Shown here piece by piece: positions 8,482-58,048 of a DNA stretch of 64,000 nucleotides. Under the pieces are notes generated by a model. The model saw only the letters and a program-made list of their open reading frames with translations. It was not told the DNA's origin and ran no database searches. Made by a program: the position numbers and the translations under genes. Positions within the stretch are counted from its first letter, which is position 1; the number at the start of each line of letters is the position of its first letter. Source of the DNA: Candidatus Niyogibacteria bacterium (lineage in GTDB: Bacteria > Patescibacteriota > Minisyncoccia > HO2-45-28); the NCBI GenBank assembly GCA_016432485.1, contig CP066691.1, positions 516,709 through 580,708 on the forward strand. Reading direction: 5' to 3'.

Positions 8482-8503
8482 AGAGTTGTTTTTTTTATCC
8501 GCT

Positions 8504-9553: not shown

Positions 9554-9556
9554 GTA

Positions 9557-21287: not shown

Positions 21288-21288
21288 A

Positions 21289-33001: not shown

Positions 33002-34111
33002 TTAGCTTTTCATCGGCATAACCAAATAAAGATATGAAACGTCGCGCGGGTTTTGGATTAGAAGAGGTTTGCTTGCTCCCGAAAAACGCAAAATAACGTC
33101 TTCGGAATTTACGGGCTCCAACCCCTCAAGCAAATATCTCTGATTAAAAGACGCTTCAAGATTTTCTCCGGTAATCTGAGCCTTAAGCTGACCGTTGTGC
33201 TCGCCGAGCTCGCTGTCACTGGTGGTTATCTCAAAAATATTGTCCCCGGCGTAAGCGCGCAATTTTACTTCTTTCAGGCGGCCGGAAAAAACGCCGGCTA
33301 ATTTAAGGTTGTCCGTAAGTTCTTTTTTATTCAGAGTAACTTCGGTGCTGAATGCCGACGGAATTATTTGCTCGTAATCGGGGAAGTTTCCCTCAATCAA
33401 TCTGGTAAAATACGAAAAAGAGGGGTGAAGCGCGAAAAGATGCTGGCGGTCAAACTCCAATTCTACGTCTCCTTCAAAATTCTCAATTATTTTTATGAAA
33501 TCAAGGGCTGATTTTCCGGGAAAGAGAAAAGAGTCTATTTTTTCAGTTTTTGAATCAAAGGATTTTTCAGCCAGACGGAAAGAATCGGTGGCCGCCATTT
33601 TAAAAAATGAGCCCGGATTGTTTTTGCTGCCGGAGGAAAAGAAAACGCTTGATATTTCCGGTTTGATATCGGATTCGGAAGCGGCGAAAATCACGCTTTT
33701 CATGTTTGAAAACAATTTTTCCGCGTTGAAAACCAATTTTTGCCCGTTTTTTATTTTAGGCAGTTTCGGAAAGTCTTCCTGATCATAAGCTTTTATTGTG
33801 GTGGAGGTATTTTTAGTAGTCAGATTAATGTTGTTATTTTTTGATTCTAAAAATATTTTTTCGTCGTTTACTGACGATAAAAGAGAAATAATGGGTTTAG
33901 CCTGAATAACCAGTGTTCCTTCTTTTTTTACTTGAGCCGGTATTTTTGTCTCAAAACCGCTGTATAAATCGGTTGACCTGATAAGCAGATGATTTTTTTC
34001 GGCTTTTAAAAATATTCCGTTTAAAACCGGATTGGCGTTTCTCTGATTGGTTTGCCTTTCGGCCAATTGAATACTTTTTTGGAAATGAGTTTTAAAGCAA
34101 GACAACTCCAT
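33002..34111 (-). CDS. dnaN: DNA polymerase III beta sliding clamp
   Basis: 369 aa with a three-domain layout and MELSCFKTHF...N-terminus. Lies immediately downstream of dnaA. Confidence 0.85.
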   Translation of the reverse strand: MELSCFKTHFQKSIQLAERQTNQRNANPVLNGIFLKAEKNHLLIRSTDLYSGFETKIPAQVKKEGTLVIQAKPIISLLSSVNDEKIFLESKNNNINLTTKNTSTTIKAYDQEDFPKLPKIKNGQKLVFNAEKLFSNMKSVIFAASESDIKPEISSVFFSSGSKNNPGSFFKMAATDSFRLAEKSFDSKTEKIDSFLFPGKSALDFIKIIENFEGDVELEFDRQHLFALHPSFSYFTRLIEGNFPDYEQIIPSAFSTEVTLNKKELTDNLKLAGVFSGRLKEVKLRAYAGDNIFEITTSDSELGEHNGQLKAQITGENLEASFNQRYLLEGLEPVNSEDVILRFSGASKPLLIQNPRDVSYLYLVMPMKS

Positions 34112-34319
34112 AATAATAAATTTAATTAATTAAACTGTAGTTGTAGATGTTAGCGTGCATAAGTGTAAAAACCATTTATGTGTTTAGTTTAAACCCTTTT
34201 TAACTATAAAACTGTTTATTTTCTTGTTGATAAATCGTGGAAATGATTTTGATAATTTTCAGTCCGAATTCTTTTTTATAAATCATCAACATTTTTTCAA
34301 CATAATTTTCATAAGATAC
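34112..34319. other. AT-rich dnaA-dnaN intergenic region with DnaA-box-like motifs (candidate oriC part)
   Basis: TGTTGATAA (= TTATCAACA), TTTTGATAA and TCATCAACA are present in a >75% AT region. Confidence 0.4.
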
Positions 34320-35684
34320 TCACTGTTTTTCTTCCTCATATAATTGGGCCCGGATTGTTTTTATTTCTTCTTTGAGGCGGTCGTCTCTTTTAATCTCGTT
34401 GGTTATTTTAGTATAGGCGTGAATGGCGGTTGTATGGTCTCGGCCGCCGAATTTTTGTCCGATATAAGGAAAAGAGCCGTTAAAATCTTCTCTTAGAAGG
34501 TACATCGCTACTTGTCTCGGCTTGACTACCTCCTTCCTTCTGGTTTTCTCAAAAAGAAATTTTTCCTGAATGTCGTAAAATTGCGCGATCTTTCTTATTA
34601 TCTGCTGAGCGCTTAGAACTTTCCTCGGTTTTTCGTTTTTGGTCAGTATTTCTTTTACCTCGGACAAATCCAGAGGCCGCTTTTTCATTTTTGAGCGCAC
34701 GATCACGGAATTAAGCGAACCCTCCATCTCCCTGATATTGGATTGGACGGCTGATGCTATGTATTCCAGTATTTCAAGCGAGGGCTGGTATTCTTGGTTT
34801 GGAGCTGTTTTGGACTGCAGTATTGCCAGCCTGGTTTCGTAGTCCGGTTCTACTATGTCGGCTATCGTGCCTCCCTCAAAACGCGATCTAAGGCGGTCTT
34901 CAATGTTTGGTATTAATTTGGGAGGCCTGTCGGAAGAGAAGATTATTTGTTTATTCGCCTGATGCATGGAGTTGAAAGTGTGAAAAATTTCTTCCTGGGT
35001 AGCGGCTCCGCGGCTGGCAATGAACTGGATATCGTCAATTATCAAAACGTCAAAAGAGCGGTACTTATCTTTAAAAAAGACGGTTTCGTTATTGCGGATT
35101 GCCGCGACCAATTCGTTGGCAAAACGTTCCGCGCTGACGTAATAAACTTTTTTATCGGGATAGTCGGCTTTCATTTTATTTCCTATTGCCTGCATTAAGT
35201 GGGTTTTTCCCAGCCCGACTCCGCCATAAATAAAAAGAGGGTTGTAGAGAACGCCCGGGTTTTTTATTACCGATAGAGCGGAGGCATGAGCCAGCTCATT
35301 GAATATCCCTACGATAAAATTATCCAGAGTATATTTAGGATTGAGGTTTGTTTCGCGGTCGGTGTATATATCGCGAAAATCCATTTGTTCTTCCGTTGAT
35401 TTAGGCTCTGCTTTTTTCTCCTGGACCGTGCCGAACGTCGCTATCTTGAATTCGATTGAACGCACTTCGGGCGAGCGAGCCCGGAGGCATTTTAAAATAT
35501 GTTTTTGGTATTTATCCTCCAGCCACTCTTTAATAAAAGCCGAGGGGGTCCCTATGATTATTTTCCCTTCGTCCTGGTCGGCTATGAACGTATTTTGAAA
35601 CCAAGTCGCGAAATTGGCTTTCGAAACGGTTAATTCTAATTCTCTCAAAATCTCCTTCCAGAGCTCTTCTTTAATCATAATCAT
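34320..35684 (-). CDS. dnaA: chromosomal replication initiator DnaA
   Basis: AAA+ Walker A GGVGLGKTHL, Walker B LIIDDIQF, a C-terminal DnaA-box-binding HTH and an N-terminal domain I. Confidence 0.93.
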   Translation of the reverse strand: MIMIKEELWKEILRELELTVSKANFATWFQNTFIADQDEGKIIIGTPSAFIKEWLEDKYQKHILKCLRARSPEVRSIEFKIATFGTVQEKKAEPKSTEEQMDFRDIYTDRETNLNPKYTLDNFIVGIFNELAHASALSVIKNPGVLYNPLFIYGGVGLGKTHLMQAIGNKMKADYPDKKVYYVSAERFANELVAAIRNNETVFFKDKYRSFDVLIIDDIQFIASRGAATQEEIFHTFNSMHQANKQIIFSSDRPPKLIPNIEDRLRSRFEGGTIADIVEPDYETRLAILQSKTAPNQEYQPSLEILEYIASAVQSNIREMEGSLNSVIVRSKMKKRPLDLSEVKEILTKNEKPRKVLSAQQIIRKIAQFYDIQEKFLFEKTRRKEVVKPRQVAMYLLREDFNGSFPYIGQKFGGRDHTTAIHAYTKITNEIKRDDRLKEEIKTIRAQLYEEEKQ

Positions 35685-35833
35685 CTAAGTTTTTTAAACG
35701 ATTTCTATATTATATCTTTAATGTTTTTTATTTACGAACCACCAAAATTTTACTAAACCCTACTCTGATGTTAATAAGCTGTGGATGATTTGTGAATATT
35801 GTTTAAATTAAAAATATGTGTAAGAATAATCAT
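35685..35833. other. AT-rich region upstream of dnaA / rpmH with DnaA-box-like motifs (candidate oriC part)
   Basis: TGTGGATGA and TGTGAATAT are near-matches to the TGTGGATAA box; the flanking genes are divergently oriented. Confidence 0.4.
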
Positions 35834-35974
35834 ATGTCGCCAAAAAGAACTTATCAGCCCAAAAAACGCAAAAGGAAAAAGACTCACGGTTTCCGAAAAC
35901 GCTCCAGAAGCGCCGGGGGCAAGCGTATTTTGAAGGGCCGGCGCCGGAAAGGCCGCAAGAAGCTTACGGTTTGA
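35834..35974 (+). CDS. rpmH: 50S ribosomal protein L34
   Basis: [23 protein letters not shown]... is the canonical L34 sequence. At 46 aa it falls below the 60-aa cutoff of the ORF track. Confidence 0.9.
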
Positions 35975-36324
35975 TGGCCGCTTTTAAGCGCAGCCGGCGG
36001 CTTTACGATAAAAAAGCGATTAGTCAAGTTTTGCGCCGCGGCCGAAGGATTGAGCGCGGTGGCCTCGTTGTCTATTTTCAAAGTTCTGATAATTCCGCAT
36101 CGCGTCTCGCAGTGGTCGTTTCAAAGAGCGTTGATAAAAGAGCGGTGAGGCGCAATAAAATTAGGCGGCAGATAAGTGAGATAATGCGGGGGCTCATTTT
36201 CGGAATAAAAAAACCCTTGCGTATAATCGTAAGGGTTTTGCCCGAAGCTTCCAAGGCGGACTTTGGGCGGCTGAAAAACGCGCTGGAAGAAATATTCGTA
36301 AATATAAACAATCTAAAAATTTAA
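35974..36324 (+). CDS. rnpA: ribonuclease P protein component
   Basis: Basic ~115-aa protein directly after rpmH, with a KRAVRRNKIRRQI motif. Confidence 0.85.
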   Translation: MAAFKRSRRLYDKKAISQVLRRGRRIERGGLVVYFQSSDNSASRLAVVVSKSVDKRAVRRNKIRRQISEIMRGLIFGIKKPLRIIVRVLPEASKADFGRLKNALEEIFVNINNLKI

Positions 36325-36334
36325 GAATCTTATA

Positions 36335-37111
36335 ATGGCCTGGCTATTAGTAATTTTTAACGAGATTTTTTATCGCCCGCTTTTAAATGCTCTGGTGTGG
36401 CTCACCGGTTTTTTGCCGTTCAATGATTTGGGACTTGCGGTTATTGTTTTGACCGTAGTGGTTAGAATCGTGCTTTTTCCTTTGACCCACCGTTCAATTA
36501 AAACCCAGAACAAAATGAAGCAGATTGAGCCCGAGCTTAAAAAAATAAAAGATAATTTTAAAGATCGCCAGGAACAAGCGCGCCGCACTATGGAACTCTA
36601 TCGCGCTCACGGTATCAATCCCCTTTCCGGAATCCTTTTGCTTTTTTTACAGCTTCCGATTCTTATTGCTCTTTATTTGGTTTTCCGAGAGAGCGTTAAC
36701 ATAGATGCCGCCTATTTATACGGTTTTATCGCCGTTCCGGAGCATGTCAATACGATGTTTTTGGGTTTATTTGACCTTAGTCAGGGGAGCATGATACTTG
36801 CGGCCGCGGCCGCTTTATCGCAGTTTATGCAGATAAAACTTGCTAAGCTGCCTTCCATCGCCCGCAGTTCCTCCCCCGGCGCGAAATCAATGGATTTTGG
36901 CAAGATGATGTCCTGGCAGATGACTTATTTCATGCCGCTTTTGATATTTTTTATAGCCATGCGTTTTCCGTCAGCAGTCAGTCTTTATTGGACAACGCTC
37001 AATATTTTTGCTACAGTGCACGAAGGGATAGTAAGAAAAAAAGCCCAAAAAATTTATGCCGTCGAAGGAAACAGTTCAAAGGATACAAATTCTGATTCAA
37101 AACCTTCTTGA
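36335..37111 (+). CDS. yidC: membrane protein insertase YidC (short form)
   Basis: YidC/Oxa1 core helices (PLTHRSIKTQNKMKQIEPELKKIK, LQLPILIALY). Confidence 0.88.
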   Translation: MAWLLVIFNEIFYRPLLNALVWLTGFLPFNDLGLAVIVLTVVVRIVLFPLTHRSIKTQNKMKQIEPELKKIKDNFKDRQEQARRTMELYRAHGINPLSGILLLFLQLPILIALYLVFRESVNIDAAYLYGFIAVPEHVNTMFLGLFDLSQGSMILAAAAALSQFMQIKLAKLPSIARSSSPGAKSMDFGKMMSWQMTYFMPLLIFFIAMRFPSAVSLYWTTLNIFATVHEGIVRKKAQKIYAVEGNSSKDTNSDSKPS

Positions 37112-37520
37112 AAGAATGGGGTGTTCCGGCTCTGTTGATTTTATTGAGTACCCCGAAAATTTATTTTTCAGCGTGCATACTTCCGACGGCGGAATTTTGA
37201 TAGGAGAGTCTGGTGAAAGACTGAAAGCCATCAATCACATTATTCATAAAATGGCAGAGCGCGAATTCCCCGCGGACTACCCTAGTTTGAAGTTTTTTGT
37301 TGACGTTAACGATTATCAAAAGCAAAAAATAGAAGAACTAAAGGACTTGGCGCGGCTTTCCGCCCAGCGCGTGCGTTATTTTAAAAAAGAAATTGAAATG
37401 CAGCCGATGACCTCTTATGAGCGTCGCATTATTCACGCCACGCTTACCGAGTATCCGGATATTTCCACCCAGAGCACGGGCGTCGGCGAAGAAAGAAGAG
37501 TGGTAATTAAACCTCTTTAA
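37056..37520 (+). CDS. jag: Jag/KhpB-type RNA-binding protein (KH plus R3H)
   Basis: C-terminal R3H motif (SYERRIIHATL). The true start may be the internal ATG at 37116, which would remove the overlap with yidC. Confidence 0.75.
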   Translation: MPSKETVQRIQILIQNLLERMGCSGSVDFIEYPENLFFSVHTSDGGILIGESGERLKAINHIIHKMAEREFPADYPSLKFFVDVNDYQKQKIEELKDLARLSAQRVRYFKKEIEMQPMTSYERRIIHATLTEYPDISTQSTGVGEERRVVIKPL

Positions 37521-37527
37521 AAAATCT

Positions 37528-38691
37528 CTAATTTATAATTTCTAAACTCCAAAGTGAGCCGCTGTTTTTATCTATGAAGAATAGAAAGACGCCGTCGTAT
37601 GATACGGTTATTTGTTTTATGTTGAACGGCAAGGTTTCGTCAAGCAGACGTTTTTGTCCGGTTTCAAAATTTATTTCCCATAATGTATCGCTGGTTGAAA
37701 TAGAGCCTTGCAGCCATTCATCGGGGTAAACAGCCGCTTGCAGACCCTGATCTAGGCCGCAATAAACAAGACCGGCGTTTTTTCGGGTAAAAGAGCATTT
37801 TTCAGCCAGGCCATCGGTTTGGATATCGACAGCCGTTTTTTTGTTCAGGTCGTAAATGAAAAGCCGAGGTTTTTCCGAGGCGGCGTCGTAGACGGAGTAA
37901 ATGACTTTCTGGCCGTCATCTGAAAATTTTATCTGCAGTCCTGCCAGGTCTCCCAAAATTTTGTTAAGAGTCCCCCGCTGGAGGTCGTATTTAAACAGAA
38001 ATCCTTCGGCAACTCCGGACGGACGGCTTAACAGATAAACGGAATTTTTTTCGGGCCAATAAATATCAAAATCTCCGAAAGGAAAAGACGCGACATCAGT
38101 CTGTCTGGAATTATCGGGGTCGGCGGCAATAAGACGCGAGCCGTTCGGCGTCGGTACGAGATAGAGGAGGCGTTCTCTATCCGGCGCGAACGCGAATGAA
38201 ATTATATTTTGGGGCAGAACCGTCGCCCTTGTTGAGGTCGCTATAAATTCGGCCGAAACTGTCCGGATATTGTCATTCTCAATATATTTAAAAATTATTT
38301 TTGAGGCATTTTGGGACCACGATGTTTCAAATATTTTCGGTATGGTCGTGTTTGAAACTCGAGTTTGGTCTTCTCCACGCGGCCCGATGTCCATTATATG
38401 TCCGTCTTGTTTCAAGAGGTAGCGCAGACCGGTTTCTTTTATTGAAAAACTTTCAACCGGACCCTGGTCAAGCATTAAAAGCGCCAGTTCTTCCGCAATC
38501 GGCGCGGGCGCGGTTTCGGGTGAAGGCTGAGCTGGCTCCCCTCCTCCGAAAAGACCGAAAGGAAATCTTTGTAAAAATCCGCGCTCCGCTTCTTCAGCTA
38601 ACGGCGCCGGTCTGACCGCAAGCCAAATCGCCCCGGCGGCGATTACGAGGATGAAAAATATGATTAATCCTATAGCTAATGGTTTATTCAT
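37528..38691 (-). CDS. membrane-anchored beta-propeller (TolB/PD40-like) protein; last gene of the T4SS-like block
   Basis: N-terminal TM helix followed by a repetitive beta-strand-rich sequence with PD40-like patterns. Confidence 0.35.
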   Translation of the reverse strand: MNKPLAIGLIIFFILVIAAGAIWLAVRPAPLAEEAERGFLQRFPFGLFGGGEPAQPSPETAPAPIAEELALLMLDQGPVESFSIKETGLRYLLKQDGHIMDIGPRGEDQTRVSNTTIPKIFETSWSQNASKIIFKYIENDNIRTVSAEFIATSTRATVLPQNIISFAFAPDRERLLYLVPTPNGSRLIAADPDNSRQTDVASFPFGDFDIYWPEKNSVYLLSRPSGVAEGFLFKYDLQRGTLNKILGDLAGLQIKFSDDGQKVIYSVYDAASEKPRLFIYDLNKKTAVDIQTDGLAEKCSFTRKNAGLVYCGLDQGLQAAVYPDEWLQGSISTSDTLWEINFETGQKRLLDETLPFNIKQITVSYDGVFLFFIDKNSGSLWSLEIIN

Positions 38692-38699
38692 AATTTATT

Positions 38700-39542
38700 T
38701 TAACAATTTGTGCCTAACCATGAACATAAAAATCCTTTGGATTGTTGAGACGATTGTTGCTGGGTTGTCTGTTGCTGTGTTTTGGCGGAGCCTACGCAAA
38801 CATAATATCTGGCAGCGCCACTTATATTGCCGCTTCCGGGGAATTGCGACAGGAGACCGAACTCGCCGCCCGCCCCCGAGCATTTTTGCTCCATATTTTC
38901 TATGGCTTTTCTTCTTTCATTGATGTCGTTTGTGCCGAAACTCATCAAATCAATAAATTCTTCAATTTTTAACTTTTTACCGTAAACAGACAGTTTTTGA
39001 TTGATGTTTTCCACGGTTTTAGCCGTATCTCCCGGTATATTAGGACTGGGCGGTATAACTTTTTTCGTTGCGTTCTTTACGATTTCTTGTGTTGATGGTT
39101 CGACTCCGAATAACACATCTTTCCAATCCGGACATTTTCCCTCCGGACATTCTGATGTAAAGGCGCTTGGCGTTTTCGGATTCACAAAAACCGGATTTAT
39201 GGTGTTTAAAGTTATCCATGAAAGAAGAGCCACTGCTAATCCTAGAACAGACGCGGCAATGCGGTTTTTGGCCGCTTCAACCTGCGGAGGGGAGATTGCC
39301 CCTGCCATCCACTGAAAACCCGCGAATATAATGGAAAGAGTAGCGATGACGGCAGCTGAGGCAATCATCAGAGGGAAAAGCCATTTTAAAAAACCGATAA
39401 AACCGTCCCGGGTTTGATTCCATGTGGTGAACTGCTGGGCTGCCTGTTTATCTATCGTGTAATCAGCCGCCTCCGTTGTTATTGCGGCAAACGATATAAA
39501 AAGCGCGATTATTATTGATATGTAAATAATTTTATAAAACAT
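38700..39542 (-). CDS. secreted membrane protein with VirB2/TrbC-like hydrophobic hairpin (candidate pilin) and Q-rich C-terminal extension
   Basis: Signal peptide followed by two long hydrophobic helices (LFPLMIASAAVIATLSIIFAGF / AASVLGLAVALLSWITL), then a ~150-aa soluble tail. Confidence 0.3.
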   Translation of the reverse strand: MFYKIIYISIIIALFISFAAITTEAADYTIDKQAAQQFTTWNQTRDGFIGFLKWLFPLMIASAAVIATLSIIFAGFQWMAGAISPPQVEAAKNRIAASVLGLAVALLSWITLNTINPVFVNPKTPSAFTSECPEGKCPDWKDVLFGVEPSTQEIVKNATKKVIPPSPNIPGDTAKTVENINQKLSVYGKKLKIEEFIDLMSFGTNDINERRKAIENMEQKCSGAGGEFGLLSQFPGSGNISGAARYYVCVGSAKTQQQTTQQQSSQQSKGFLCSWLGTNC

Positions 39543-40536
39543 TTATCGTAAAAGTTTGCCTGGCTTCTTGTAAGATGTTGGAGGTGTTTTTAATTAAAAT
39601 TTCCACCACCGAACTGCCGCCGGCATCGGCCGCGGCCCCGAGGTTTAAAATGTTTTGCGGAGCTTCCTGGCCGGCTCTTCGGCCGTCCACCGACCAGACG
39701 TATTCAAGGTTTTCGCGGCCGCGATCCAGCGAGAAAAAGAACGGATGAGCTATAAAAGATTTTTTCTCTCCGGCAAAAATTACATCATTCCTTCGGTCTT
39801 GAAAAGCGAAATCGTTTTTGGGTCCCGAGAGCGCGTCGTTTTCGTAAACTAGAATAGAAGGATTTAAGACGCCGATATCTATTGATTTTTTGGCAGTGAT
39901 GTTTCCGTCCAGATTTGAAACTTCAAGGTTAACGATATGCGTGAGGTCGGAAGAAAATCCCGCGCCGAAAGTGAAAGTATTTCTGCCCGCGCCTGATTGC
40001 GCCTGTTTGAAATCATTGTCAAGCGTCCAGCGATAAATCAGGCCGGATGCCGGAATTTTTCTGCCGCCGGAAACCAGGTTTGGGAAAGCGCTTGCGGTTA
40101 TTGCTGATTTCGGCGAAGCCAGAGCTTTTCCTTTGTACCAAAAAGGAATTGATGTCGCGGCCCGCCATAAGATGTCAACATCGGCTATGACCAGCGAGAA
40201 TTCTGTTTCGTGGCGTATGCCGTTTACGTCTATTGCGACGACGGTTAATATTTCTGATTTTCCGACATCTCCGGTTGTGAATCCGTATTCTTTAAGGCCG
40301 GTTCCGCGGAGCGCGACCGCGCCGTTATGAATCCATGTAATTTGTGAGCTGTTTAATTCAAAAGAAAACGCCGAAACGCGGGCGATAATGTTTTGATTGG
40401 GACCCGGAGCATCGGTTGGGATCAGCTCTATAAAAAAGTTTTCCGTTCCCGTTCCCAAATCAATCTGGGCTCCGGCAGGAAAAATCGTCAGAAAAGCCAG
40501 AAATAAAACCGTTGTTAATAAAAATTTATTTCGCAT
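39532..40536 (-). CDS. secreted hypothetical protein
   Basis: Cleavable signal peptide (LFLAFLTIFPAGAQ) and a beta-rich sequence; 334 aa. Confidence 0.4.
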   Translation of the reverse strand: MRNKFLLTTVLFLAFLTIFPAGAQIDLGTGTENFFIELIPTDAPGPNQNIIARVSAFSFELNSSQITWIHNGAVALRGTGLKEYGFTTGDVGKSEILTVVAIDVNGIRHETEFSLVIADVDILWRAATSIPFWYKGKALASPKSAITASAFPNLVSGGRKIPASGLIYRWTLDNDFKQAQSGAGRNTFTFGAGFSSDLTHIVNLEVSNLDGNITAKKSIDIGVLNPSILVYENDALSGPKNDFAFQDRRNDVIFAGEKKSFIAHPFFFSLDRGRENLEYVWSVDGRRAGQEAPQNILNLGAAADAGGSSVVEILIKNTSNILQEARQTFTINVL

Positions 40537-40540
40537 ATTA

Positions 40541-40924
40541 TTATTCTCCGAAAAACGTCCTAAATTGCGGACTCTTATTGTAAAAGTATAGAAACACCAC
40601 CATTCCGGTATAAGCCGGCAGAAAAGGTATGAATCCCGAAGCCCCGCTTAGGTGAAAGGCCCACGGTTTTTTAAGTTCGCGGGCTTGTGTCCACGCGAAT
40701 ATAGTAAACCAAGCTATACCGTCTATTATAAAACCGACAAGGGGTACTTGGCTAATTAAGTCGCAAAACGAAGCAAAACCAATCATCATTCCGAACTCGG
40801 ACTTGCTTACCATGGGACCGGCCACGGCGGCCGCTTTTTGCGTCGCCAGGCCTTCATTTTTACGGGATTCCTGAAGTTTCAAGTTTCGTTCGCCTTCCTC
40901 GGTTGTAATATTTTCATCAGCCAT
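40541..40924 (-). CDS. small membrane protein
   Basis: 127 aa with 2-3 hydrophobic helices. Confidence 0.4.
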   Translation of the reverse strand: MADENITTEEGERNLKLQESRKNEGLATQKAAAVAGPMVSKSEFGMMIGFASFCDLISQVPLVGFIIDGIAWFTIFAWTQARELKKPWAFHLSGASGFIPFLPAYTGMVVFLYFYNKSPQFRTFFGE

Positions 40925-40932
40925 GTTTTAAA

Positions 40933-42750
40933 TTATTTTTCCTGCGCTATTCCCTGCTTCGCCTTTTTAATCGCTAATAATTGCTGGGGGTCGGAAGTTA
41001 TAATTTGGTCTTCGGTGTAAGACGATATTATTTTGATGGCCACATGTTTGAGGCCGGCGAAAAACAACCCTTCGCCGATATCGGACTCCAGTATCAGGAA
41101 TTTTTCTTCGTCGGTCAGGTTGAAAGTTTTTTGGAGAAGATCAATGGTCGCGGGCGACTGTTTTAAAAGAATCTGGATTGAAGAGTTTGTAATGATGGGC
41201 ACGCCGTAAGGGGAGCGCAAAAAATCGCCCACGTCTTGAGTAATCGTCGCCACTCCCAAAAAATATTTTCTCGCGCGCTTGGCTATGCCGAATAAGAATG
41301 AGGCGCCCTGTTCTTCTTTCATAATCCACCAGGCTTCGTCTATGACCAGAATTCTCTTTTTTAAATTTTTTCGGACAGCGTTCCAGATATGGTGGGTTAT
41401 CAAATACATTGCCACCGGACGCAGTTCGTCCTCCATGTCTCTTACCGAAAAAACCACCAGCTTTTTATTTATATCAACATTTGTAGGCTGGTTGATGAAG
41501 CCGGCCCAAGTGCCCTGGGTGTATTTGCGCATGCGCTGGGCCAATCCTTCGCCGCCTTCCATATTGGCTAAAATCAATTCAAGATCCGAAAGTATCGGCG
41601 GAATTTTTGAAGAAAAATCAGATTCCGGAGTAATGTCGCGCGAAGCGTAAGTTTCGGTGATGGCCCGGTCTAAAATGGAATCCTCTTCCGGCGTAAGTCC
41701 GCCGAGCATTATGCGGAAAAGTCCGACTAAGTTTATGATGTTAGACCTTAAAATATCCGAGGGGTCTTCGTCTTCGCGGGGTTTGGGCAGGTCAAAAGGA
41801 TTAATATGATGCTGGGAAGAAAGAGAGATGTTGAAATATCGGCCGTCAACGGCCTCCGACAGAAATTCATATTCGCGTTCGGGGTCAATCACTATGACAT
41901 CGGTGTCAAACATTAAAGAGCGAAGTATTTCAAGTTTCGTGGCATAACTTTTTCCCGCTCCGGCTTTGGCGAAAATGACCGAATTGTAGTTTTCAAGCGA
42001 GAATCTGTCAAAAAGAACCAGGCTGTTATTATGGCGATTTACGCCGTAAAGAATGCCTCGGTTGGAAGTGAGGTCAAATGAAACAAAAGGGAAAAGACTT
42101 GATATCGGCGAGGAATTAAGTTTGTTGTTGACTCCCAGAATGTCCCGTCCCAGGGGGAAAACAGTCAGGAGGCCGTCATCCTGCTGGAAAAGAGCGGGTT
42201 TGGCGTAAACCAGACGGGATTCAAGCATTGACCTTATTTCCGTTTCGTCCCGGTTGAGTTCTTCCAGAGTGTCGGCATAGATTGTCATATAAAGGCCGAA
42301 AGAAAAAAGTTTTTCCTGCGCCTGTTGCAGTTTGTCGCGCAGTTCCTCCAGGTTTTGATAAGCGGCATCCAGCATCGGGTCCCTAACCAGGCCTTTTTCT
42401 TCGCGCATGTGGATTTGAGACTGGACTTCGGCGACCTTTTTCTGGAGCTGGCGTAAAACTCCGGCCGTATCCATCGGATGGATGTAAATAGATATGTCAA
42501 AAACCTTGTCGAGATTTATGATTGAGCTGAACCAGTTCACGGCCAGATATTTGGGATAGGAGAAAATAAAAATGGTGCGGGCTATTTTTTCCCCGATTTT
42601 TACGTAATTTGAATTTACTTCCAAAGCTGACGGCGCGATGATGTCTTTCAATTCCAAAACCGCGGCCTCGTAAATCTGTTCGGGCTGAATCGCGATTATC
42701 TCGTCGTTTGCCCCCACCTCCTTCTTTTTGAATAAGTCTCCTAAAGCCAT
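40933..42750 (-). CDS. VirB4/TrbE/CagE-family type IV secretion ATPase (C-terminal ATPase part)
   Basis: Walker A FAKAGAGKSYATK, the VirB4-type Walker B LVIDEAWWIM and downstream motifs; 605 aa. Confidence 0.7.
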   Translation of the reverse strand: MALGDLFKKKEVGANDEIIAIQPEQIYEAAVLELKDIIAPSALEVNSNYVKIGEKIARTIFIFSYPKYLAVNWFSSIINLDKVFDISIYIHPMDTAGVLRQLQKKVAEVQSQIHMREEKGLVRDPMLDAAYQNLEELRDKLQQAQEKLFSFGLYMTIYADTLEELNRDETEIRSMLESRLVYAKPALFQQDDGLLTVFPLGRDILGVNNKLNSSPISSLFPFVSFDLTSNRGILYGVNRHNNSLVLFDRFSLENYNSVIFAKAGAGKSYATKLEILRSLMFDTDVIVIDPEREYEFLSEAVDGRYFNISLSSQHHINPFDLPKPREDEDPSDILRSNIINLVGLFRIMLGGLTPEEDSILDRAITETYASRDITPESDFSSKIPPILSDLELILANMEGGEGLAQRMRKYTQGTWAGFINQPTNVDINKKLVVFSVRDMEDELRPVAMYLITHHIWNAVRKNLKKRILVIDEAWWIMKEEQGASFLFGIAKRARKYFLGVATITQDVGDFLRSPYGVPIITNSSIQILLKQSPATIDLLQKTFNLTDEEKFLILESDIGEGLFFAGLKHVAIKIISSYTEDQIITSDPQQLLAIKKAKQGIAQEK

Positions 42751-42761
42751 AATGTTAAAGT

Positions 42762-43415
42762 TTAAGTTCTAATTTGCGGCGCGTGTCCTTTTTCCAATTC
42801 CCCCGGGTTGAATAATCCGTAGAAGAGTTCAACCGCCTCTTCGGTGTTTAGGGGCGCGGTTCGCGTTCCGGTTGAAGCAATGGCTCCCGAAACCGTTTCG
42901 GCTCTTTGCCAGAGTTGATTTTTATGTTCCTCAAATTTTTCATCGCTTAGTTGTTTGTCTTCTTTTTTTACGCCGAAAAGCCCTTTGAATATCCCGCCCA
43001 GTCCGTTTTTTTTGCCGATCTCAATTAAGGGAGGGGCAAAAGAGACGACGATGTAGAAATTTTTGGTCACGATTTTTGTGGTTTCAACAAAAGTTCTGAT
43101 GAATTCAATGTATTCGCGTGTCTGTATTTTCAATAATTCATTAGTCTGGTCGCGTTCTGTTTCGCGCAGAGTTTCAAGGTAGGGTTCAATATTGAGCCTG
43201 CGTGACTGGATCACGATTTGCACCGAGAAATCCAGCGCGTTTAAAAAGTTTTGATATTGCGCGGTAATGGCCTCTTGCTCCTCGTTTGACCTTAAGGCGA
43301 AATTCAAAGACGAAGCCATCAAAACCATATGTAGGCTTTTATCTTCGGTGATTATTATGCCGTCGCGTATTTCTCTTATCGGCACGAATTCCTGCGCTGA
43401 TAGTGGTTTTGCCAT
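42762..43415 (-). CDS. probable N-terminal domain of VirB4 encoded as a separate ORF
   Basis: 217 aa ending 11 nt before the ATPase ORF. Combined length of 822 aa equals a typical VirB4. Confidence 0.4.
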   Translation of the reverse strand: MAKPLSAQEFVPIREIRDGIIITEDKSLHMVLMASSLNFALRSNEEQEAITAQYQNFLNALDFSVQIVIQSRRLNIEPYLETLRETERDQTNELLKIQTREYIEFIRTFVETTKIVTKNFYIVVSFAPPLIEIGKKNGLGGIFKGLFGVKKEDKQLSDEKFEEHKNQLWQRAETVSGAIASTGTRTAPLNTEEAVELFYGLFNPGELEKGHAPQIRT

Positions 43416-43820
43416 TTACTTAATTTTCTCTTTAACATCTAAAGACCAAGCCAGGTCCTTTAATTTGCTTTCGGTGGTTTTAGGTAAAACGAATTCTTGT
43501 TTGGGAGCCGAAATTTTTTGGGCTTTGGGTTTTTTGGTCTCGCTTCTTTTCCAGATATAAAGTTTTGATTTGGTGTAATATGATACGGCGTTGGCCATTA
43601 CGTTTATGAAAGGCTGATTATGCACTTTATAAAATGCCAAAGCCAAAGCCAGCCCGGCGACCGGCAAACCCAGAAGCACTGTCAGAAAAAAGGGCAGAAA
43701 AACATATATTATGAAAACCGTAGCGACGCCCCCCAGAAGATAGATAAACTGCTTCAGGGTCAGCGGCCCGAAAATTTTGTCTTCAACCTCTATGAATTGC
43801 GGAACGCTAAATTGTCTCAT
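43416..43820 (-). CDS. VirB3/PrgI-like small 2-TM protein
   Basis: 134 aa with two TM helices, located immediately upstream of VirB4, which is the conserved VirB3 position. Confidence 0.4.
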   Translation of the reverse strand: MRQFSVPQFIEVEDKIFGPLTLKQFIYLLGGVATVFIIYVFLPFFLTVLLGLPVAGLALALAFYKVHNQPFINVMANAVSYYTKSKLYIWKRSETKKPKAQKISAPKQEFVLPKTTESKLKDLAWSLDVKEKIK

Positions 43821-43822
43821 AT

Positions 43823-44452
43823 TTATTTTGGGGGCTCTTTATAAGGGTCGGCTTTATCCGGATAACGATTTTCTTTTCGGGCTTGCTCTGTTTCTTCGGA
43901 CAATGATTCCCCGGGCATAAAAACTTTTTCTTCAAGCCTGGTTTCAAACGGCGAAGTTTTTAAACTTTTAAACTCTTCTGTCCCCTTTATTTCACGATTC
44001 GGAGTTTGCGTCTCGGTTTCAACTGATTTTTCGGGAGGAACGGCAGGAACATGGGAAATAGGAGCAACAGGAGAAACGGGTGGGACAAAAGGAGTGGGCG
44101 CGGTCGGCGTTTCGGAAATAACTTCCTCACCAACCGCGTGTATTTTTTTCAGAGATTCTTTGACTTTTGAAAAAATCTGCGCGTTTATCTCCTGCGCGAT
44201 TTTTTTAGTCGTTTCCGGATCGGTTCCGAGACGTCCGGTTAAATTAGAAATGAAATCGCGCGGATGCGTGACTCCAAGCATCAGAAGTCCGGTTTCATCG
44301 TCCAGTTCTCCCATTTTGTCAATTTGGAGGCCGTATTTTTTGCCAATCGCCTGAACAATATCAGCTGTATCTATGCTGGTGATGGCATTTTGCAGTTCTT
44401 TCGGCAGGCCTTTATATTTTTCAAAAATTTGTTCGTTAGTTAGTTGAGACAT
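43823..44452 (-). CDS. hypothetical soluble protein with Pro-rich linker
   Basis: 209 aa; the stop overlaps the next gene's start; contains PTAPTPFVPPVSPVAP. Confidence 0.4.
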   Translation of the reverse strand: MSQLTNEQIFEKYKGLPKELQNAITSIDTADIVQAIGKKYGLQIDKMGELDDETGLLMLGVTHPRDFISNLTGRLGTDPETTKKIAQEINAQIFSKVKESLKKIHAVGEEVISETPTAPTPFVPPVSPVAPISHVPAVPPEKSVETETQTPNREIKGTEEFKSLKTSPFETRLEEKVFMPGESLSEETEQARKENRYPDKADPYKEPPK

Positions 44453-46140
44453 TATTTATTCTTTTTTTCTTTATCTGATTCGGCCTTTTGCTTAGACATT
44501 TTTTCTACTTCCTCCAGACTTTCGTTCATGGCATTTATTTTTTCCCCGACAGTAGCCTTGGGATTATTTAAAATTGCCGCTCTTTTTGCCTTCCTGCTTC
44601 TTTCGTCCAAAACTTTTTCAATTGCTTCTCGTCGCGCTCTATTCAGGAATTGCAGCCTAGAGGTCTTTAAGTTTTTAAGGGTGTCTGTGCTGTAAGAAGA
44701 GTATTGTTGCGTGTAGCGTTTTATTTCGGGTTGATCGAGCGTTGATGCTTTAGTTATGCCGCGCCCGACAAATGGCATGGAGCGCACAAACTTCGCGGCG
44801 CGCGTTTCACTTTCAGCAATAGTTTTGGCGATAGGCGCGGTGTATCTTTTGCCGACCGTTCCGGCATATCCGACAGCCCACTTGCGGGCGGATTTTACTC
44901 CTTTTTCGGCCCATTCGGCGGCTTTGCCGCCCATTTGTTTGGCCACAAGAACGCTTGCCATAAGCATTATGATTAAAAGAAGGTAGTAAGCAATCATTGA
45001 AAAACTGGTAACAAAGGCCGTGCTTTCGGCTTGCCCGCCTTTTATTCCCGTCAGCAGGTCTTTGGCTTTGCCCGAAGCAATCATTTCAACCGTAACGCCA
45101 AAAAGGAAGAAAAACGCCGGCGCGAAAAATGCCTGTTTGAGCAAAGTTGACCACCATTGTCTGGCATAAGAATCCAATCCCGGGATTGCGTAGAATAGAA
45201 ACGCGACGGGAGAAAGAATCATTAAAAACCATAAAATTACCACCCGGATTAAAAGCGATAGTCCGGCAAAAGCTAGCGCAAATATGGCGACAAGAATAAA
45301 AACCGTTACGCCGAGCATTGCCACTGTCATCTGAATCAGAGTATTAGGCAGGTCTTTTTGCGCGGTTTCAAGCTTTTTTCGCAGGCTTTCTTCCTCACTG
45401 AGGAGTTTTTTTATTCCGGGATCTTCCGGAGCGCTCTCGCCGACAATAAGCTTTTCCGTCACGCTCGCCAATTGTTCCTGTATTTTCGATATGTCGCTGA
45501 ATCCGAACTTGGCGCTTTTAAACATCTGATTCGGATTTAATCCGGCAAGAAATTTGACCGAGAGGGACGCCGAACTTTTTCCCTGCGCCCCCCCCGGCAG
45601 AAAAAATCCGGTCATAAGATTTGAAGAAAAGACAACGTATTGCGTAAGCAAAAACGAAAAGTTGATGAAGAGGGCGGCTATTATCAGGCGGGGCAGAAGT
45701 TTTTTGACTCCGAACGTATCTACCTGCAGGATGGTCGCGATGGCGATGGTTAAAAGTATAAAAATGAAAAAGAGGTTCGCGCTGTCGCGGGCTATGGTCC
45801 ACCCCTTGTAGATGGCGTCAAGATTATAGGTTGCCGGATCAAGCGTGAATGCAGTTACCAGGTCAAAGATAATTCCGAAAACCTGAAACATTGCTGATAC
45901 GAACATGAGTGCCGCGAATACCATCCAGCTTACTGCGGTAAGAATTGGGCAGCCGAGAAACCAGCCGACCCCTGACAAATCAGCACAAGATGCTTTTGAA
46001 AGTTCGGCGGCAACGCCGGTGTTTTGAGCGTAAGCGGCTGCGGGCTGCAAATACAGAATTGAGATTATCAGCATTAAAATCGCTACCGTTATTAAAGCGG
46101 CCGATTTCTTACTTTTTAATTTCTTTTTTAAAAAATTCAT
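44452..46140 (-). CDS. polytopic membrane protein, VirB6/TrbL-like
   Basis: Signal peptide then at least 8 TM helices over ~400 aa and a ~130-aa charged C-terminal tail; sits in the T4SS context. Confidence 0.35.
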   Translation of the reverse strand: MNFLKKKLKSKKSAALITVAILMLIISILYLQPAAAYAQNTGVAAELSKASCADLSGVGWFLGCPILTAVSWMVFAALMFVSAMFQVFGIIFDLVTAFTLDPATYNLDAIYKGWTIARDSANLFFIFILLTIAIATILQVDTFGVKKLLPRLIIAALFINFSFLLTQYVVFSSNLMTGFFLPGGAQGKSSASLSVKFLAGLNPNQMFKSAKFGFSDISKIQEQLASVTEKLIVGESAPEDPGIKKLLSEEESLRKKLETAQKDLPNTLIQMTVAMLGVTVFILVAIFALAFAGLSLLIRVVILWFLMILSPVAFLFYAIPGLDSYARQWWSTLLKQAFFAPAFFFLFGVTVEMIASGKAKDLLTGIKGGQAESTAFVTSFSMIAYYLLLIIMLMASVLVAKQMGGKAAEWAEKGVKSARKWAVGYAGTVGKRYTAPIAKTIAESETRAAKFVRSMPFVGRGITKASTLDQPEIKRYTQQYSSYSTDTLKNLKTSRLQFLNRARREAIEKVLDERSRKAKRAAILNNPKATVGEKINAMNESLEEVEKMSKQKAESDKEKKNK

Positions 46141-46163
46141 TTATGGCGAAATTTTTATGATTT

Positions 46164-47507
46164 TTATGACCCCGGACACGCCTGAAGTTCTGAAAGAAGC
46201 GAATCAAGTTTTTCCTGGAATTCGTCTGCTTGTTGGTTGGCCGCGTCTATATCGTCTTGCGATGCCGATTGGTTTGCCGAATCAACCGCCTGCGTCCCGA
46301 CATCGCTTAATTCCTGGGGACTGTTTGTCGTTTCCGCTTTTACTCGCGAGTTTTCGTAGTCGCTAAGCGCGGCGCGAGCCGATTTAAGTTCGCTTTTTAT
46401 GTCATCAAGGTTTTTTTGCGCTTCGGCAATTTCTTCGTTTCGCGGTTGCGTCCCGCAGCTATGTAATTTGTTAAGCGTCTGAATTGTTTGAGTCAGTGTA
46501 TTTGATGACCGCTCTTTTGCTTTTATGTAGCCGTTCGTTAGGTTTATGGCATCAGTTAAGAGGGGGGTTATTCCCTTTCGGCTGTTATTGAGAAGTCCGG
46601 AATAGTCCGGATTGGATGACCCGCCCGAAGACAGTATGCCGTCTCTGCCGGTGCCGCTTAGGGCGCTATTTAAAAGTTGTACTACGACCGTTGAGATAAG
46701 TTCGTTTATTTCATCCGACACTGCTGTTTTGATAGCTGTGTATTCGTCCGGAAGTTCAAGTTTTTTAGCCACATAACTTCCCGGCGTTACGGTTTCTTCC
46801 CTTAAGCAGGGTTTGTCAGTGCCCGCGGCTTCGCTAAAAGCGATTTCTTTGGAATACTCCGCGCATCTTTTCCAGCTGAGAAATCCTCCGGACGCTTGAG
46901 ATTCAAGTTTCAGGCCGGTTACCTTTTCAAGTATGGCCCGCTGCGTCTGGTCCATTTGGATTAGAATGGAGCCGAAAGCGTTGTTGGCCACATTAGCGGT
47001 GGTAATTGAAATAAAGCCGGTCCAGCCGTAGGTTTCAAAGGTGTTATAGAGCGCGTCCACATTGGCAATAAACCTATCAAGAGTACAGACTGCTTGTTGT
47101 CTTTGAGCCGAGACCAAACCCAGAACAATGTCTATTCTAAAAGGACTGCAGATATTCGGCGCGCCATTAGCGATAAGGCCATCAACAAAAATACCAAAGG
47201 CTTCGTTTCCGGCTTTTCTTAAATATCCTTCCCAGTCGGTTACGAAAAGAGGTTTGCCGTTAAAGCCGTTTCGTATCCAGCTTTTTATGTTGTCGGACAT
47301 AGTCCTGATTAGAGCGACTCCTATAGCGTTGACCAACGGATCAAGGACATAATCTTTGACCGCCTCTGATCCAGCCGGCAGCTCTATTGTAAAAAATGTT
47401 ACAGCCTCGGCTTTTGGCGGCGAAAAAGGAAATAGTGTAGCGAGCAGAATCGCGACAATAACCGGGACAATATATTTTTGAAATCGGACGCTTCGCTTAA
47501 AAATCAT
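46164..47507 (-). CDS. secreted protein with C-terminal coiled coil
   Basis: N-terminal signal/TM and a C-terminal ~120 aa with heptad-like Q/E/K-rich sequence. Confidence 0.4.
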   Translation of the reverse strand: MIFKRSVRFQKYIVPVIVAILLATLFPFSPPKAEAVTFFTIELPAGSEAVKDYVLDPLVNAIGVALIRTMSDNIKSWIRNGFNGKPLFVTDWEGYLRKAGNEAFGIFVDGLIANGAPNICSPFRIDIVLGLVSAQRQQAVCTLDRFIANVDALYNTFETYGWTGFISITTANVANNAFGSILIQMDQTQRAILEKVTGLKLESQASGGFLSWKRCAEYSKEIAFSEAAGTDKPCLREETVTPGSYVAKKLELPDEYTAIKTAVSDEINELISTVVVQLLNSALSGTGRDGILSSGGSSNPDYSGLLNNSRKGITPLLTDAINLTNGYIKAKERSSNTLTQTIQTLNKLHSCGTQPRNEEIAEAQKNLDDIKSELKSARAALSDYENSRVKAETTNSPQELSDVGTQAVDSANQSASQDDIDAANQQADEFQEKLDSLLSELQACPGS

Positions 47508-48532
47508 TGCAGAGCGATTATTAAATTAATTAACGCGAAGCCGGCTTCACTCGGCTTAAAGACCAGATTGTCTTTTTGAATTAAAACGCCCGCCGTCAAA
47601 AGCGCGTTTTTGACATTTTTAGATTCATTCAGGTATTGCTGCACGGCGCCAAGTCCGGTTACTGGGTCGGACATAAATTGTGAAAACGCTTTATTTATTT
47701 TCGCGAGATTGTTTAAGGCGTTTAAATATTTTAAATGCGCGGAAATGTAAGTTTGCGGCACCATCAGTTTTGATATTTCAAGTGCCGCGTCTTCGTATGC
47801 CCGGGCGTAAATTTTAAATTCGTCAAACGAATTGAAATTGTCTTCGGAGTTTGACTGCTGGATTAAACGCGTCAGCAAATCCAGTTCATTTTCTTTTATC
47901 TGCCCGCTGTATTTGTCGGATATTTCCGCTAAGCCATTTATATAAGCTTTGGCGTTTTCCGGAGAGGCGCTTGTTACGCGCGCGTTATTGAGCGAGAAAT
48001 CATTTTTGAAAACCGCGGCGGGATTGTCGTTTAAAAGAGCGTCCACGACTTGACTCGCGGTTTCTTTGGGGTCAAGGCCGGCATTTCTTTGCTGGATGTA
48101 CGAGGCAAAAAGGTCTCGGGTTATTCTTTGGGTCGGGTTATAGGGTTCGCCGGCAGGCGCGCCATCGGACATTTGATTTTCGTCATTACTGGACGCGCTT
48201 GACGAATTCAATAAATCATCCGGGCCTTTTTTCAAAGGGTCGCGCCCCAATTTTATTTCTTCTCCGTCGGGCGCTTGGTCGCCGTCGGTGTCAGGATTTA
48301 GCGGGTCAGTACCCCAAAGTTTTTCTTCCCAGTCCTTTAAGCCGTCACCGTCAGAATCCGGAGATTCAATGGCCGTTTTTTCTCCGGAAATCGGCGTTAT
48401 ATTTACTCCGGAAGCCATTTTTTTGACATCGGGTTTTTTGGAAATCCAAAAAGCGCCCGCAGCTATGGCTAGCGCGAGAATTATTGCGAATATTGTTCTT
48501 TTATTTCCTAAAAATGCCAAAATCGCAGGCAA
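47504..48532 (-). CDS. membrane-anchored protein with calcium-binding-like DxDxDG repeats (TTG start)
   Basis: TM helix, then DSDGDGLKDWEE...DPLNPDTDGDQAPDGEE, which resembles thrombospondin type 3 repeats. TATAAT and AAGGCG lie upstream. Confidence 0.4.
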   Translation of the reverse strand: MPAILAFLGNKRTIFAIILALAIAAGAFWISKKPDVKKMASGVNITPISGEKTAIESPDSDGDGLKDWEEKLWGTDPLNPDTDGDQAPDGEEIKLGRDPLKKGPDDLLNSSSASSNDENQMSDGAPAGEPYNPTQRITRDLFASYIQQRNAGLDPKETASQVVDALLNDNPAAVFKNDFSLNNARVTSASPENAKAYINGLAEISDKYSGQIKENELDLLTRLIQQSNSEDNFNSFDEFKIYARAYEDAALEISKLMVPQTYISAHLKYLNALNNLAKINKAFSQFMSDPVTGLGAVQQYLNESKNVKNALLTAGVLIQKDNLVFKPSEAGFALINLIIALQ

Positions 48533-48581
48533 TACGCCTTACAATAATTATAGCATTTTACTTTTTCTATTGATTTTTATT

Positions 48582-49445: not shown

Positions 49446-49446
49446 A

Positions 49447-58044: not shown

Positions 58045-58048
58045 TTTA

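Follow-up and report, generated by a model that had tools for sequence, protein, structure and literature searches.

We analyzed a 64,000-nucleotide (nt) stretch of a Candidatus Niyogibacteria chromosome (assembly GCA_016432485.1, contig CP066691.1, positions 516,709 to 580,708 of the forward strand; hereafter, the window) and examined a gene block at 37528-48532 that a previous sequence-only reading had described as a minimal type IV secretion system (T4SS)-like machine next to the replication origin. Its description as eleven co-directional, tightly spaced or overlapping genes was confirmed: all eleven open reading frames (ORFs) were found in place on the minus strand, and the intergenic spacing lies between an 11-nt overlap and a 23-nt gap. 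From upstream to downstream, the genes are:

47504..48532, minus strand: g01, TSP3 calcium-repeat protein (PF18884)
46164..47507, minus strand: g02, cysteine/coiled-coil protein, candidate surface adhesin or tip protein (no family match)
44452..46140, minus strand: g03, VirB6/TrbL-like polytopic membrane protein (positional orthologues, hydropathy)
43823..44452, minus strand: g04, soluble protein of 209 amino acids (aa) (no family match)
43416..43820, minus strand: g05, PrgI/VirB3-family small membrane protein (PF12666)
42762..43415, minus strand: g06, TrsD-like 217-aa protein, VirB4 N-terminal domain (NF045971/NF045975/NF041427)
40933..42750, minus strand: g07, 605-aa VirB4 ATPase body (NF045971)
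40541..40924, minus strand: g08, small hydrophobic membrane protein (hydropathy)
39532..40536, minus strand: g09, secreted protein with three immunoglobulin (Ig)-like domains (fold assignment)
38700..39542, minus strand: g10, signal peptide, VirB2-like pilin domain and ectodomain (PF18895, clade profile)
37528..38691, minus strand: g11, membrane anchor and TolB-type beta-propeller, last gene of the run (TolB profile match)

We compared this block with related loci obtained from a scan of one genome per GTDB species, in which at least 548 loci contained a VirB4 relative. The best 80 of these were kept; their VirB4 proteins are 70-90% identical, and all come from metagenome-assembled genomes labelled Patescibacteria/candidate phyla radiation (CPR) or unclassified. 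Synteny was counted in 44 of the 80 loci, those flanked on either side by 8 kb or more of sequence, each from a species-level genome. The same gene order on the same strand was present in 44/44 loci, so the block is conserved in relatives. PrgI, the TrsD-like ORF (always separate, 209-225 aa), VirB4, the triple-Ig protein g09 and the propeller protein g11 were each kept in 44/44, the VirB6-like gene in 43/44, g02 in 31/44, g04 in 29/44 and g01 in 28/44.

The g07 ATPase carries both motifs on which its placement in the VirB4 family had been based, Walker A AKAGAGKS and Walker B LVIDEAWW, and matched the NCBIfam model NF045971 ("VirB4-like conjugal transfer ATPase, CD1110 family") with 384.6 bits against a cutoff of 325 (E 9.4e-115), aligning 547 residues to model positions 179-733 of 752. 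Its best PDB match was Thermoanaerobacter VirB4 (4AG5, 4.6e-39), far better than that to TrwK (4.8e-6), and it aligned with residues 222-772 of PrgJ from plasmid pCF10 at 27% identity over 559 positions (E 1e-45). The match to DUF87/HerA reached merely 2.5e-6 over 63 residues, AAA_10 was a further weak secondary match, and the partial match to the DNA-import protein CedB (NF041017, 3.5e-10) was restricted to the P-loop region. As judged from these profiles, g07 is a VirB4 of the Gram-positive (MPF_FATA, CD1110) type.

This VirB4 is split, a feature that the sequence-only reading overlooked. The g07 protein lacks the ~220 residues with which a normal VirB4 begins; they are supplied directly upstream by g06 (42762-43415), a TrsD-like N-terminal VirB4 domain. 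The g06 protein matched the VirB4 models NF045971 (5.2e-8) and NF045975 (1.4e-8) over their N-terminal ~120 positions, the TrsD model NF041427 (6.5e-4) and, weakly, PF11130 (TraC_F_IV), and a precomputed match assigns it to PF26593 (TraC-like). The small protein noted in the VirB3/PrgI position, g05, indeed belongs to PrgI (PF12666, 1.4e-10, 42 bits, cutoff 27); with a hydrophobic stretch at residues 20-50, this PrgI/VirB3 protein would be the membrane tether for VirB4.

The g03 protein has no Pfam match of its own, and a PDB profile search with it returned nothing significant. Eleven of 36 positional orthologues matched TrbL/VirB6 (PF04610, best 8.6e-8), and the family profile showed weak similarity to pCF10 PrgH when aligned with hhalign (P 4.8e-4 over 115 columns). 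Hydropathy analysis flagged 12 partly overlapping windows, which we merged by reading into ~7-8 hydrophobic segments including an N-terminal one; the central loop is hydrophilic and the C-terminal tail charged. The protein had been called VirB6-like with more than eight transmembrane segments; the first part holds through the orthologues, whereas the second is not clear given ~7-8 segments. The order VirB6-VirB3-VirB4 in the block is that of prgH-prgI-prgJ in pCF10.

The g10 protein consists of a signal peptide, a VirB2-like pilin domain (residues ~46-120) and a 160-aa cysteine-rich C-terminal ectodomain that has no family match. Its earlier designation as a VirB2/TrbC-type pilin is weak in the window protein, which matched PF18895 below the cutoff (E 1.1e-3), and solid through its orthologues and a clade profile. 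PF18895 was matched by 29/30 positional orthologues and PF04956 (TrbC/VirB2) by 9, and g10 matched the clade pilin profile at 3.5e-27 as the sole pilin-domain ORF in the 64 kb. Searching a 5.8-billion-protein collection with this profile retrieved only stand-alone Patescibacteria pilins of 100-135 aa (up to 2.6e-26), a result that confirms the pilin domain and is no census of fusions. The small hydrophobic protein g08 was considered as a divergent pilin and rejected, as it did not match the clade pilin profile, and an hhalign comparison of the pilin family with pCF10 PrgF was negative.

A conserved motif, L-N-T-I-N-P, closes the pilin domain; its L is invariant, and T-I-N-P is found in at least 90% of sequences. 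In g10 this LNTINP occupies residues 112-117 (window 39192-39209) and marks precisely where the pilin hairpin gives way to the variable tail; what follows is hypervariable, and the C-terminal region is unalignable even between close relatives. TrbC of plasmid RP4 undergoes C-terminal trimming, and by analogy the LNTINP border may be a processing site. A long tail is the rule in the related loci, where the pilin domain is followed by 100 or more residues in 56 of 71 pilin-domain ORFs (median 177) and just 8 look like plain short pilins. In this clade the domain usually makes up the N-terminal or the central module of a larger protein. In at least seven relatives, with the order resolved by coordinates, a peptidoglycan-active enzyme lies C-terminal to the pilin domain: Amidase_2 (related locus L069), VanY (L054), Peptidase_M15_4 (L074), NlpC/P60 (L034, L044 and L051) and SLT_2 (L047). 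YkuD, CHAP and Amidase_5 were also matched in an alignment-wide scan of the g10 orthologues. Neither PMC12102498 nor the other papers that we found mention this pilin-hydrolase fusion pattern; VirB1 homologues have been described as accompanying virB4 specifically in Paceibacteria (PMC12102498).

The remaining genes of the block encode mainly envelope and extracellular proteins. The g01 protein has an N-terminal membrane anchor (one hydrophobic segment, residues 3-31), followed by TSP3 repeats and a helical domain without known family. The Ca-binding DxDxDG repeat previously pointed out in the block is the bacterial TSP3 repeat (PF18884, 2.6e-10), and the family profile matched the calcium repeats of the biofilm-associated surface protein Bap (7c7u, 1.2e-6). 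The g02 gene, immediately upstream of the VirB6-like gene, encodes a signal/anchor, a conserved cysteine-containing and mainly helical domain and a C-terminal coiled coil. We found no family for it in Pfam, NCBIfam or PDB and detected no VirB5 similarity, and an AlphaFold2 model from an 11-sequence alignment was confident only for the coiled coil (residues 303-442), residues 1-300 scoring mostly below 50 in the predicted local distance difference test (pLDDT). Orthologues of g02 carry variable domains (F5/8 type C in three, CHB_HEX_C_1, Fn3_assoc, bacterial surface Ig-like and GEVED) that probably sit C-terminally, as gauged from orthologue lengths rather than from coordinates. Overall, g02 looks like an adhesin.

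In g04, a proline-rich linker joins a conserved N-terminal domain to a C-terminal end with the likewise conserved motif DPY(R/K)EP, as seen in its alignment, and the protein has no hydrophobic segment by hydropathy. It matched no family in Pfam, NCBIfam or PDB and showed no similarity to pCF10 PrgF or PrgG in hhalign. The g08 protein, with hydrophobic segments at residues 48-78 and no family in Pfam or NCBIfam, has sequence relatives in only 4/80 loci. Some ORF of at least 50 aa lies between VirB4 and g09 in 36/69 loci, mostly with hydrophobic segments, and none in the remainder; g08 is a variable accessory slot and not a conserved component. Downstream of it, g09 encodes a secreted protein of three tandem Ig-like beta-sandwich domains, for which a PDB profile search returned nothing significant. 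The g11 family profile matched TolB structures (6pnv at 5e-7 and 11 further TolB entries), NCBIfam gave weak matches to TolB and Dpp5 propellers, and a single hydrophobic segment (residues 5-23) is followed by an extracellular propeller.

These assignments revise how the block had been characterized. Secreted or membrane proteins without a recognizable family do occur in it, whereas 39532-40536 (three Ig-like domains) and 37528-38691 (TolB-type propeller) now have a fold. Most members are not unannotatable, since six of the eleven receive a family (VirB4, TrsD-like, PrgI, VirB6-like, pilin domain and TSP3) and two more a fold, and the members other than the ATPase did not turn out to be ordinary envelope-biogenesis proteins. 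Five conserved envelope or extracellular proteins lie in the run: the TSP3, cysteine/coiled-coil, triple-Ig, TolB-type propeller and small soluble proteins. With at least five conserved extracellular accessory proteins besides the core, the term "minimal" is arguable.

Pfam scans of the ~60 window ORFs of at least 110 aa found no relaxase, VirD4/TcpA-type type IV coupling protein (T4CP), VirB11 or integrase, in line with what had been said of the block and its flanks. The single T2SSE-family ATPase of the window (21289-22953) is a PilB-type protein of type IV pili or type II secretion, 16 kb from the block; it is preceded by a 375-aa ORF without family, and 20160-22953 probably belongs to a locus for type IV pili, the other envelope machine reported essential in Saccharibacteria. 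No VirB8, VirB9 or VirB10 family was recognized among the eleven block proteins in Pfam or NCBIfam, and hhalign comparisons aimed at VirB8-like and VirB1-like components (g09 with PrgL, g02 with PrgK) showed no similarity. A LysM + M23 peptidase gene (51694-52650) lies on the opposite strand 3 kb upstream of the block, divergent from the uvrD-ksgA-T4SS run. In 5 related loci the M23 peptidase is found at this position as well, and it could take on a VirB1-like role.

The genes around the block define its chromosomal context:

49447-51396, minus strand: uvrD/pcrA-type helicase (PF00580/PF13361), 1-nt gap to ksgA
48582-49445, minus strand: ksgA (PF00398, 9.8e-41), 49-nt gap to the block
between dnaA and the block, within 33002..37520, plus strand: rpmH, rnpA, yidC and jag/KhpB (Pfam; rpmH by reading of its translation only, which reads as ribosomal protein L34)
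34320-35684, minus strand: dnaA (Pfam)
33002-34111, minus strand: dnaN (Pfam)

The dnaA/dnaN/rnpA/rpmH context and a cumulative GC skew minimum at ~31-33 kb of the window bear out the proposed position next to the replication origin. A DnaA-box scan of the window gave 14 matches, with 9.8 expected, and these do not cluster; the placement of the origin therefore depends on gene context and GC skew. Upstream, ksgA and uvrD prolong the co-directional run to 13 genes from uvrD to g11, and the spacer at 51397-51693 is a possible operon start. The window holds just two perfect TTATCCACA DnaA boxes, at 51467-51475 and 4576-4584, the former within the spacer that precedes uvrD, from which the long minus-strand run would start. 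Should oriC be located in the dnaA-rpmH spacer, the 13-gene run (within 35685-51396) would be transcribed head-on to replication; its orientation relative to yidC/jag and dnaA was identical in all related loci that we looked at. Promoter-like sites (23 against 19.4 expected) and terminator-like sites (36 against 24.7 expected) were scanned as well; the latter fell on both strands and mostly within genes, and are therefore uninformative on an operon.

The chromosomal setting is shared by the related loci. Flanking genes were found in most of them (ksgA 31/44, uvrD 24/44, yidC 41/44, dnaA 41/44 and dnaN 40/44), with the ksgA and uvrD counts lowered by the limited flank length; where present, these two kept the same order and almost always the same strand. 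The order uvrD-ksgA-block-jag/yidC/rnpA-dnaA-dnaN recurs in 44 species-level genomes, an arrangement far beyond chance. The GC content of the block (0.43-0.47) is similar to that of the adjoining DNA, with no compositional break. We found no tRNA near the block (the sole tRNA of the window lies at 25-97) and no att-like or flanking exact repeats around it. The fixed place, together with the 70-90% VirB4 identity, points to purifying selection and vertical descent. The suggestion that the block is unlikely to be a conjugative element is supported by this fixed position and by the missing relaxase, T4CP, VirB11 and integrase.

Systems of this kind have been described, so that the composition of the machine cannot be called essentially undescribed: they are the subject of PMC12102498, PMC10633639 and a review, PMC12857230. 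A survey of VirB4 across Patescibacteria recovered a monophyletic clade related to MPF_FATA, in which TrsD was the most abundant virB4-associated component, followed by PrgI/VirB3, VirB6 and VirB2-like pilins (Quinonero-Coronel et al. 2025, PMC12102498). The same study found relaxases to be almost absent from Patescibacteria, with a few detected, T4CPs to lie mostly far from virB4, and dnaA, dnaN, rnpA, ksgA and rpmH to be virB4 neighbours in Paceibacteria and Microgenomatia. The locus studied here shares with this clade an MPF_FATA-type VirB4, a separate TrsD-like ORF, PrgI/VirB3, VirB6 and a VirB2-like pilin near virB4, the lack of a relaxase or T4CP nearby (here, in the 64-kb window) and the dnaA/dnaN/rnpA/ksgA neighbourhood. 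Its assignment to the MPF_FATA type draws on NF045971, 4AG5 and the best 80 relatives, that is, on profiles and similarity. Since this type of system was published in 2023-2025, along with its position and its lack of DNA-transfer genes, the locus is a typical example of a known system, a correct rediscovery and no new kind of system.

The experimentally studied example of this clade is SEML1_0006-0019 of Southlakia epibionticum (PMC10633639). The Saccharibacteria counterpart, including its pilins, was essential for growth as an epibiont in co-culture as determined by transposon sequencing, and no recognizable coupling or relaxase protein was reported for it (Wang et al. 2023, PMC10633639); a distant t4cp homologue in S. 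epibionticum is non-essential (PMC12102498). S. epibionticum has an array of six short pilins, whereas here a single pilin-domain gene carries a long variable ectodomain, and the peptidase/lysozyme genes found directly downstream of virB4 in S. epibionticum have no counterpart at this locus. Unlike in the published catalogue, where they are unnamed, conserved triple-Ig, TolB-propeller, TSP3 and cysteine/coiled-coil proteins are seen here.

Similarities also extend to more distant machines. The Prg/Pcf system of Enterococcus faecalis pCF10 shares the VirB6-like/PrgI/VirB4 order, the 27% VirB4 identity, the PrgI family and the weak PrgH similarity. However, pCF10 has the T4CP PcfC, a relaxase, the hydrolase PrgK, the VirB8-like PrgL and the adhesins PrgB/PrgC, none of which were found here; it has no pilin, while a pilin-domain protein is present here; and its VirB4 is a single 796-aa protein where that of the locus is split. 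A separate small protein with the N-terminal VirB4-like domain beside the ATPase is a likeness to the staphylococcal pGO1/pSK41 Trs systems (TrsD + TrsE), which, unlike the locus, are plasmid-borne and conjugative, with relaxase and T4CP; this Trs subclass is reported to have no VirB6 homologue (PMC12102498). Helicobacter pylori ComB is likewise chromosomal, built from VirB2/3/4/6-type parts without T4CP, VirB11 or relaxase, and not for conjugation. ComB is nonetheless a diderm system built around an outer-membrane core of VirB7-10, whereas the VirB4 here is of the Gram-positive type, and competence in the one genetically tractable Patescibacterium involves ComEC and type IV pili, not a ComB-like T4SS.

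Taken together, the block is very probably a chromosomal, vertically inherited Patescibacteria (CPR) T4SS that derives from monoderm conjugation machinery and has lost the DNA-processing half. In solved T4SSs, pilins are extracted and polymerized by hexamers of VirB4 in complex with VirB3 and VirB6. By analogy, a PrgI-tethered VirB4 hexamer docked on the VirB6-like platform would pull pilin-domain subunits from the membrane, and these would polymerize into a short pilus or tube across the monoderm cell wall. The Ig-like, propeller and calcium-binding proteins could then serve as collar and contact elements in the part of the machine that spans the wall or touches the host, while the variable C-terminal modules of the pilin and the lectin-like ends of g02 orthologues might breach or bind the partner cell wall. 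From the literature on other classes, we infer that the system serves as a host-contact conduit for an epibiotic lifestyle and not for conjugation; that it acquires host cytoplasmic macromolecules (nucleic acids) is quite possible, if somewhat short of probable. A review discusses Patescibacteria T4SSs as possible pilus conduits (PMC12857230), and tubular connections in a cultivated Microgenomatia strain were proposed to be T4SS pili, with acquisition of host RNA (bioRxiv 10.64898/2026.06.21.733656).

Several points weigh against this interpretation. The essentiality data and tube images come from Saccharimonadia and Microgenomatia, with no Paceibacteria member among them, and the direction of transport is pure inference. 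A VirB8-like or VirB1-like component was not found in the block at the level of sequence, and the sole pilin-domain protein carries a 160-aa ectodomain, which a helical pilus may not accommodate without prior cleavage. Genes for a T4CP, a relaxase or further pilins may sit beyond the 64-kb window, which covers part of a ~837-kb contig; many Patescibacteria VirD4 homologues are far from virB4 (PMC12102498). In addition, the promoter and terminator scans were uninformative on co-transcription of the block.

We weighed this interpretation against other uses of the same parts. A T4SS that exports effectors, injecting toxins or host-manipulating proteins as do the Xanthomonas X-T4SS or Streptococcus suis 89K, ranks second to the acquisition of host macromolecules and is less likely than not. 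The combination of a T4SS core with variable surface-exposed enzyme and lectin modules in relatives would fit host attack, protein export was suggested by Wang et al. (PMC10633639), and effector delivery has been speculated on (PMC11665869). Nevertheless, the window contains no T4CP, the usual substrate receptor, and candidate effector/immunity pairs were not recognized beside the block. Moreover, the hydrolase modules are fused to the pilin membrane hairpin and come with signal peptides, which suggests Sec-dependent surface display and not channel translocation. A competence T4SS like ComB or archaeal Ced, importing extracellular or host DNA for transformation or nucleotides, is improbable, even though VirB2/3/4/6-type parts without T4CP, VirB11 or relaxase are what ComB has, and this possibility has been named before (PMC11665869). 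The CedB match would agree with it, but is confined to the P-loop region common to all VirB4, and the repair and recombination genes nearby (uvrD/pcrA directly upstream and a ComM-type ATPase at 52657-54174) are housekeeping genes whose adjacency may only reflect origin-region synteny; the comF/recG/radA genes beside the T4SS in class ABY1 (PMC12102498) also speak for DNA uptake. The block differs from ComB with its VirB7-VirB10 core in that no VirB8, VirB9 or VirB10 family was recognized among the eleven proteins. Finally, competence in S. epibionticum needs ComEC and type IV pili, and deletion of comEC abolished competence and left viability unaffected, whereas the T4SS is essential (PMC12857230).

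Two further readings question whether the block is a dedicated chromosomal system at all. Its VirB4, PrgI, TrsD-like and VirB6 families are typical of Gram-positive conjugative plasmids and integrated conjugative elements, and a few relaxases do occur in Patescibacteria (PMC12102498), as would be expected if it were such an element or its decaying remnant with relaxase, T4CP and integrase outside the window. This is very unlikely because relaxase, T4CP and integrase, element borders and a compositional break are all missing from the window. With the same housekeeping genes bracketing the block in 44 species-level genomes, no flanking tRNA or att repeats, and all ORFs intact, we rejected an element or remnant on synteny, composition and missing borders. 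There is next to no chance that the block is not a secretion system but a HerA/FtsK- or terminase-type DNA pump among unrelated envelope genes. The weak secondary matches to DUF87/HerA and AAA_10 speak for such a pump, yet they are far outweighed by the near full-length VirB4 CD1110 match above its curated cutoff (9.4e-115 versus 2.5e-6) and by the VirB4 structure matches, and the PrgI, TrsD-like, VirB6 and pilin partners stand in the canonical VirB6-VirB3-VirB4 order. The NF045971, 4AG5 and PrgJ matches refute a HerA, FtsK or terminase identity.

Within the interpretation as a vertically inherited T4SS, the new details are the universally conserved triple-Ig protein, the membrane-anchored TolB-type propeller, the calcium-repeat protein and the adhesin-like cysteine/coiled-coil protein, together with a pilin domain to which, as a rule, a variable C-terminal ectodomain is fused, in at least seven relatives a peptidoglycan hydrolase. 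We tentatively propose, as a possibility and not as the expected outcome, that the Paceibacteria-type T4SS is a distinct architectural variant. It would pair a lineage-specific extracellular half (the triple-Ig protein and TolB-type propeller of every locus, TSP3, and a cysteine/coiled-coil protein with swappable lectin ends, all of them named in no T4SS description) with a single pilin domain carrying swappable ectodomains; these include at least six Pfam families of peptidoglycan-active enzymes, counted over the clear coordinate-resolved fusions, and would possibly be released or exposed at LNTINP. If so, the pilus or stalk itself would be a wall-breaching tool acting on the partner cell.

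Patescibacteria account for a considerable part of bacterial diversity, and for the question of how they exploit their hosts the origin-proximal T4SS, essential in the one species tested, is the leading candidate conduit. The present locus is a clean, complete and strongly syntenic Paceibacteria-type example. What it still contributes is its set of accessory proteins and the pilin-enzyme fusions, and it offers as targets two universally conserved extracellular accessory proteins and a pilin domain fused to variable ectodomains.

Other features of the window were noted in passing. Within ksgA, at 48943-49174, four copies of a 16-nt palindrome (CCGAAC..GTTCGGA) form two pairs 192 nt apart and encode a repeated RTEFG-like peptide in the KsgA methyltransferase. 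The ComM/YifB-type ATPase at 52657-54174 belongs to the Mg-chelatase family and lies 4 kb upstream of the block. At 55942-58573, a PNPase ORF (TTG start at 58155) overlaps an NYN-domain ORF (58049-58573) by ~107 nt, and the true PNPase start is therefore probably further downstream; PNPase is the enzyme proposed for feeding on host RNA (bioRxiv 10.64898/2026.06.21.733656). Lastly, a dCache-HAMP histidine kinase lies beside two tandem ABC_sub_bind (PF04392) proteins at 6658-10609, a sensory/uptake module amid housekeeping genes.

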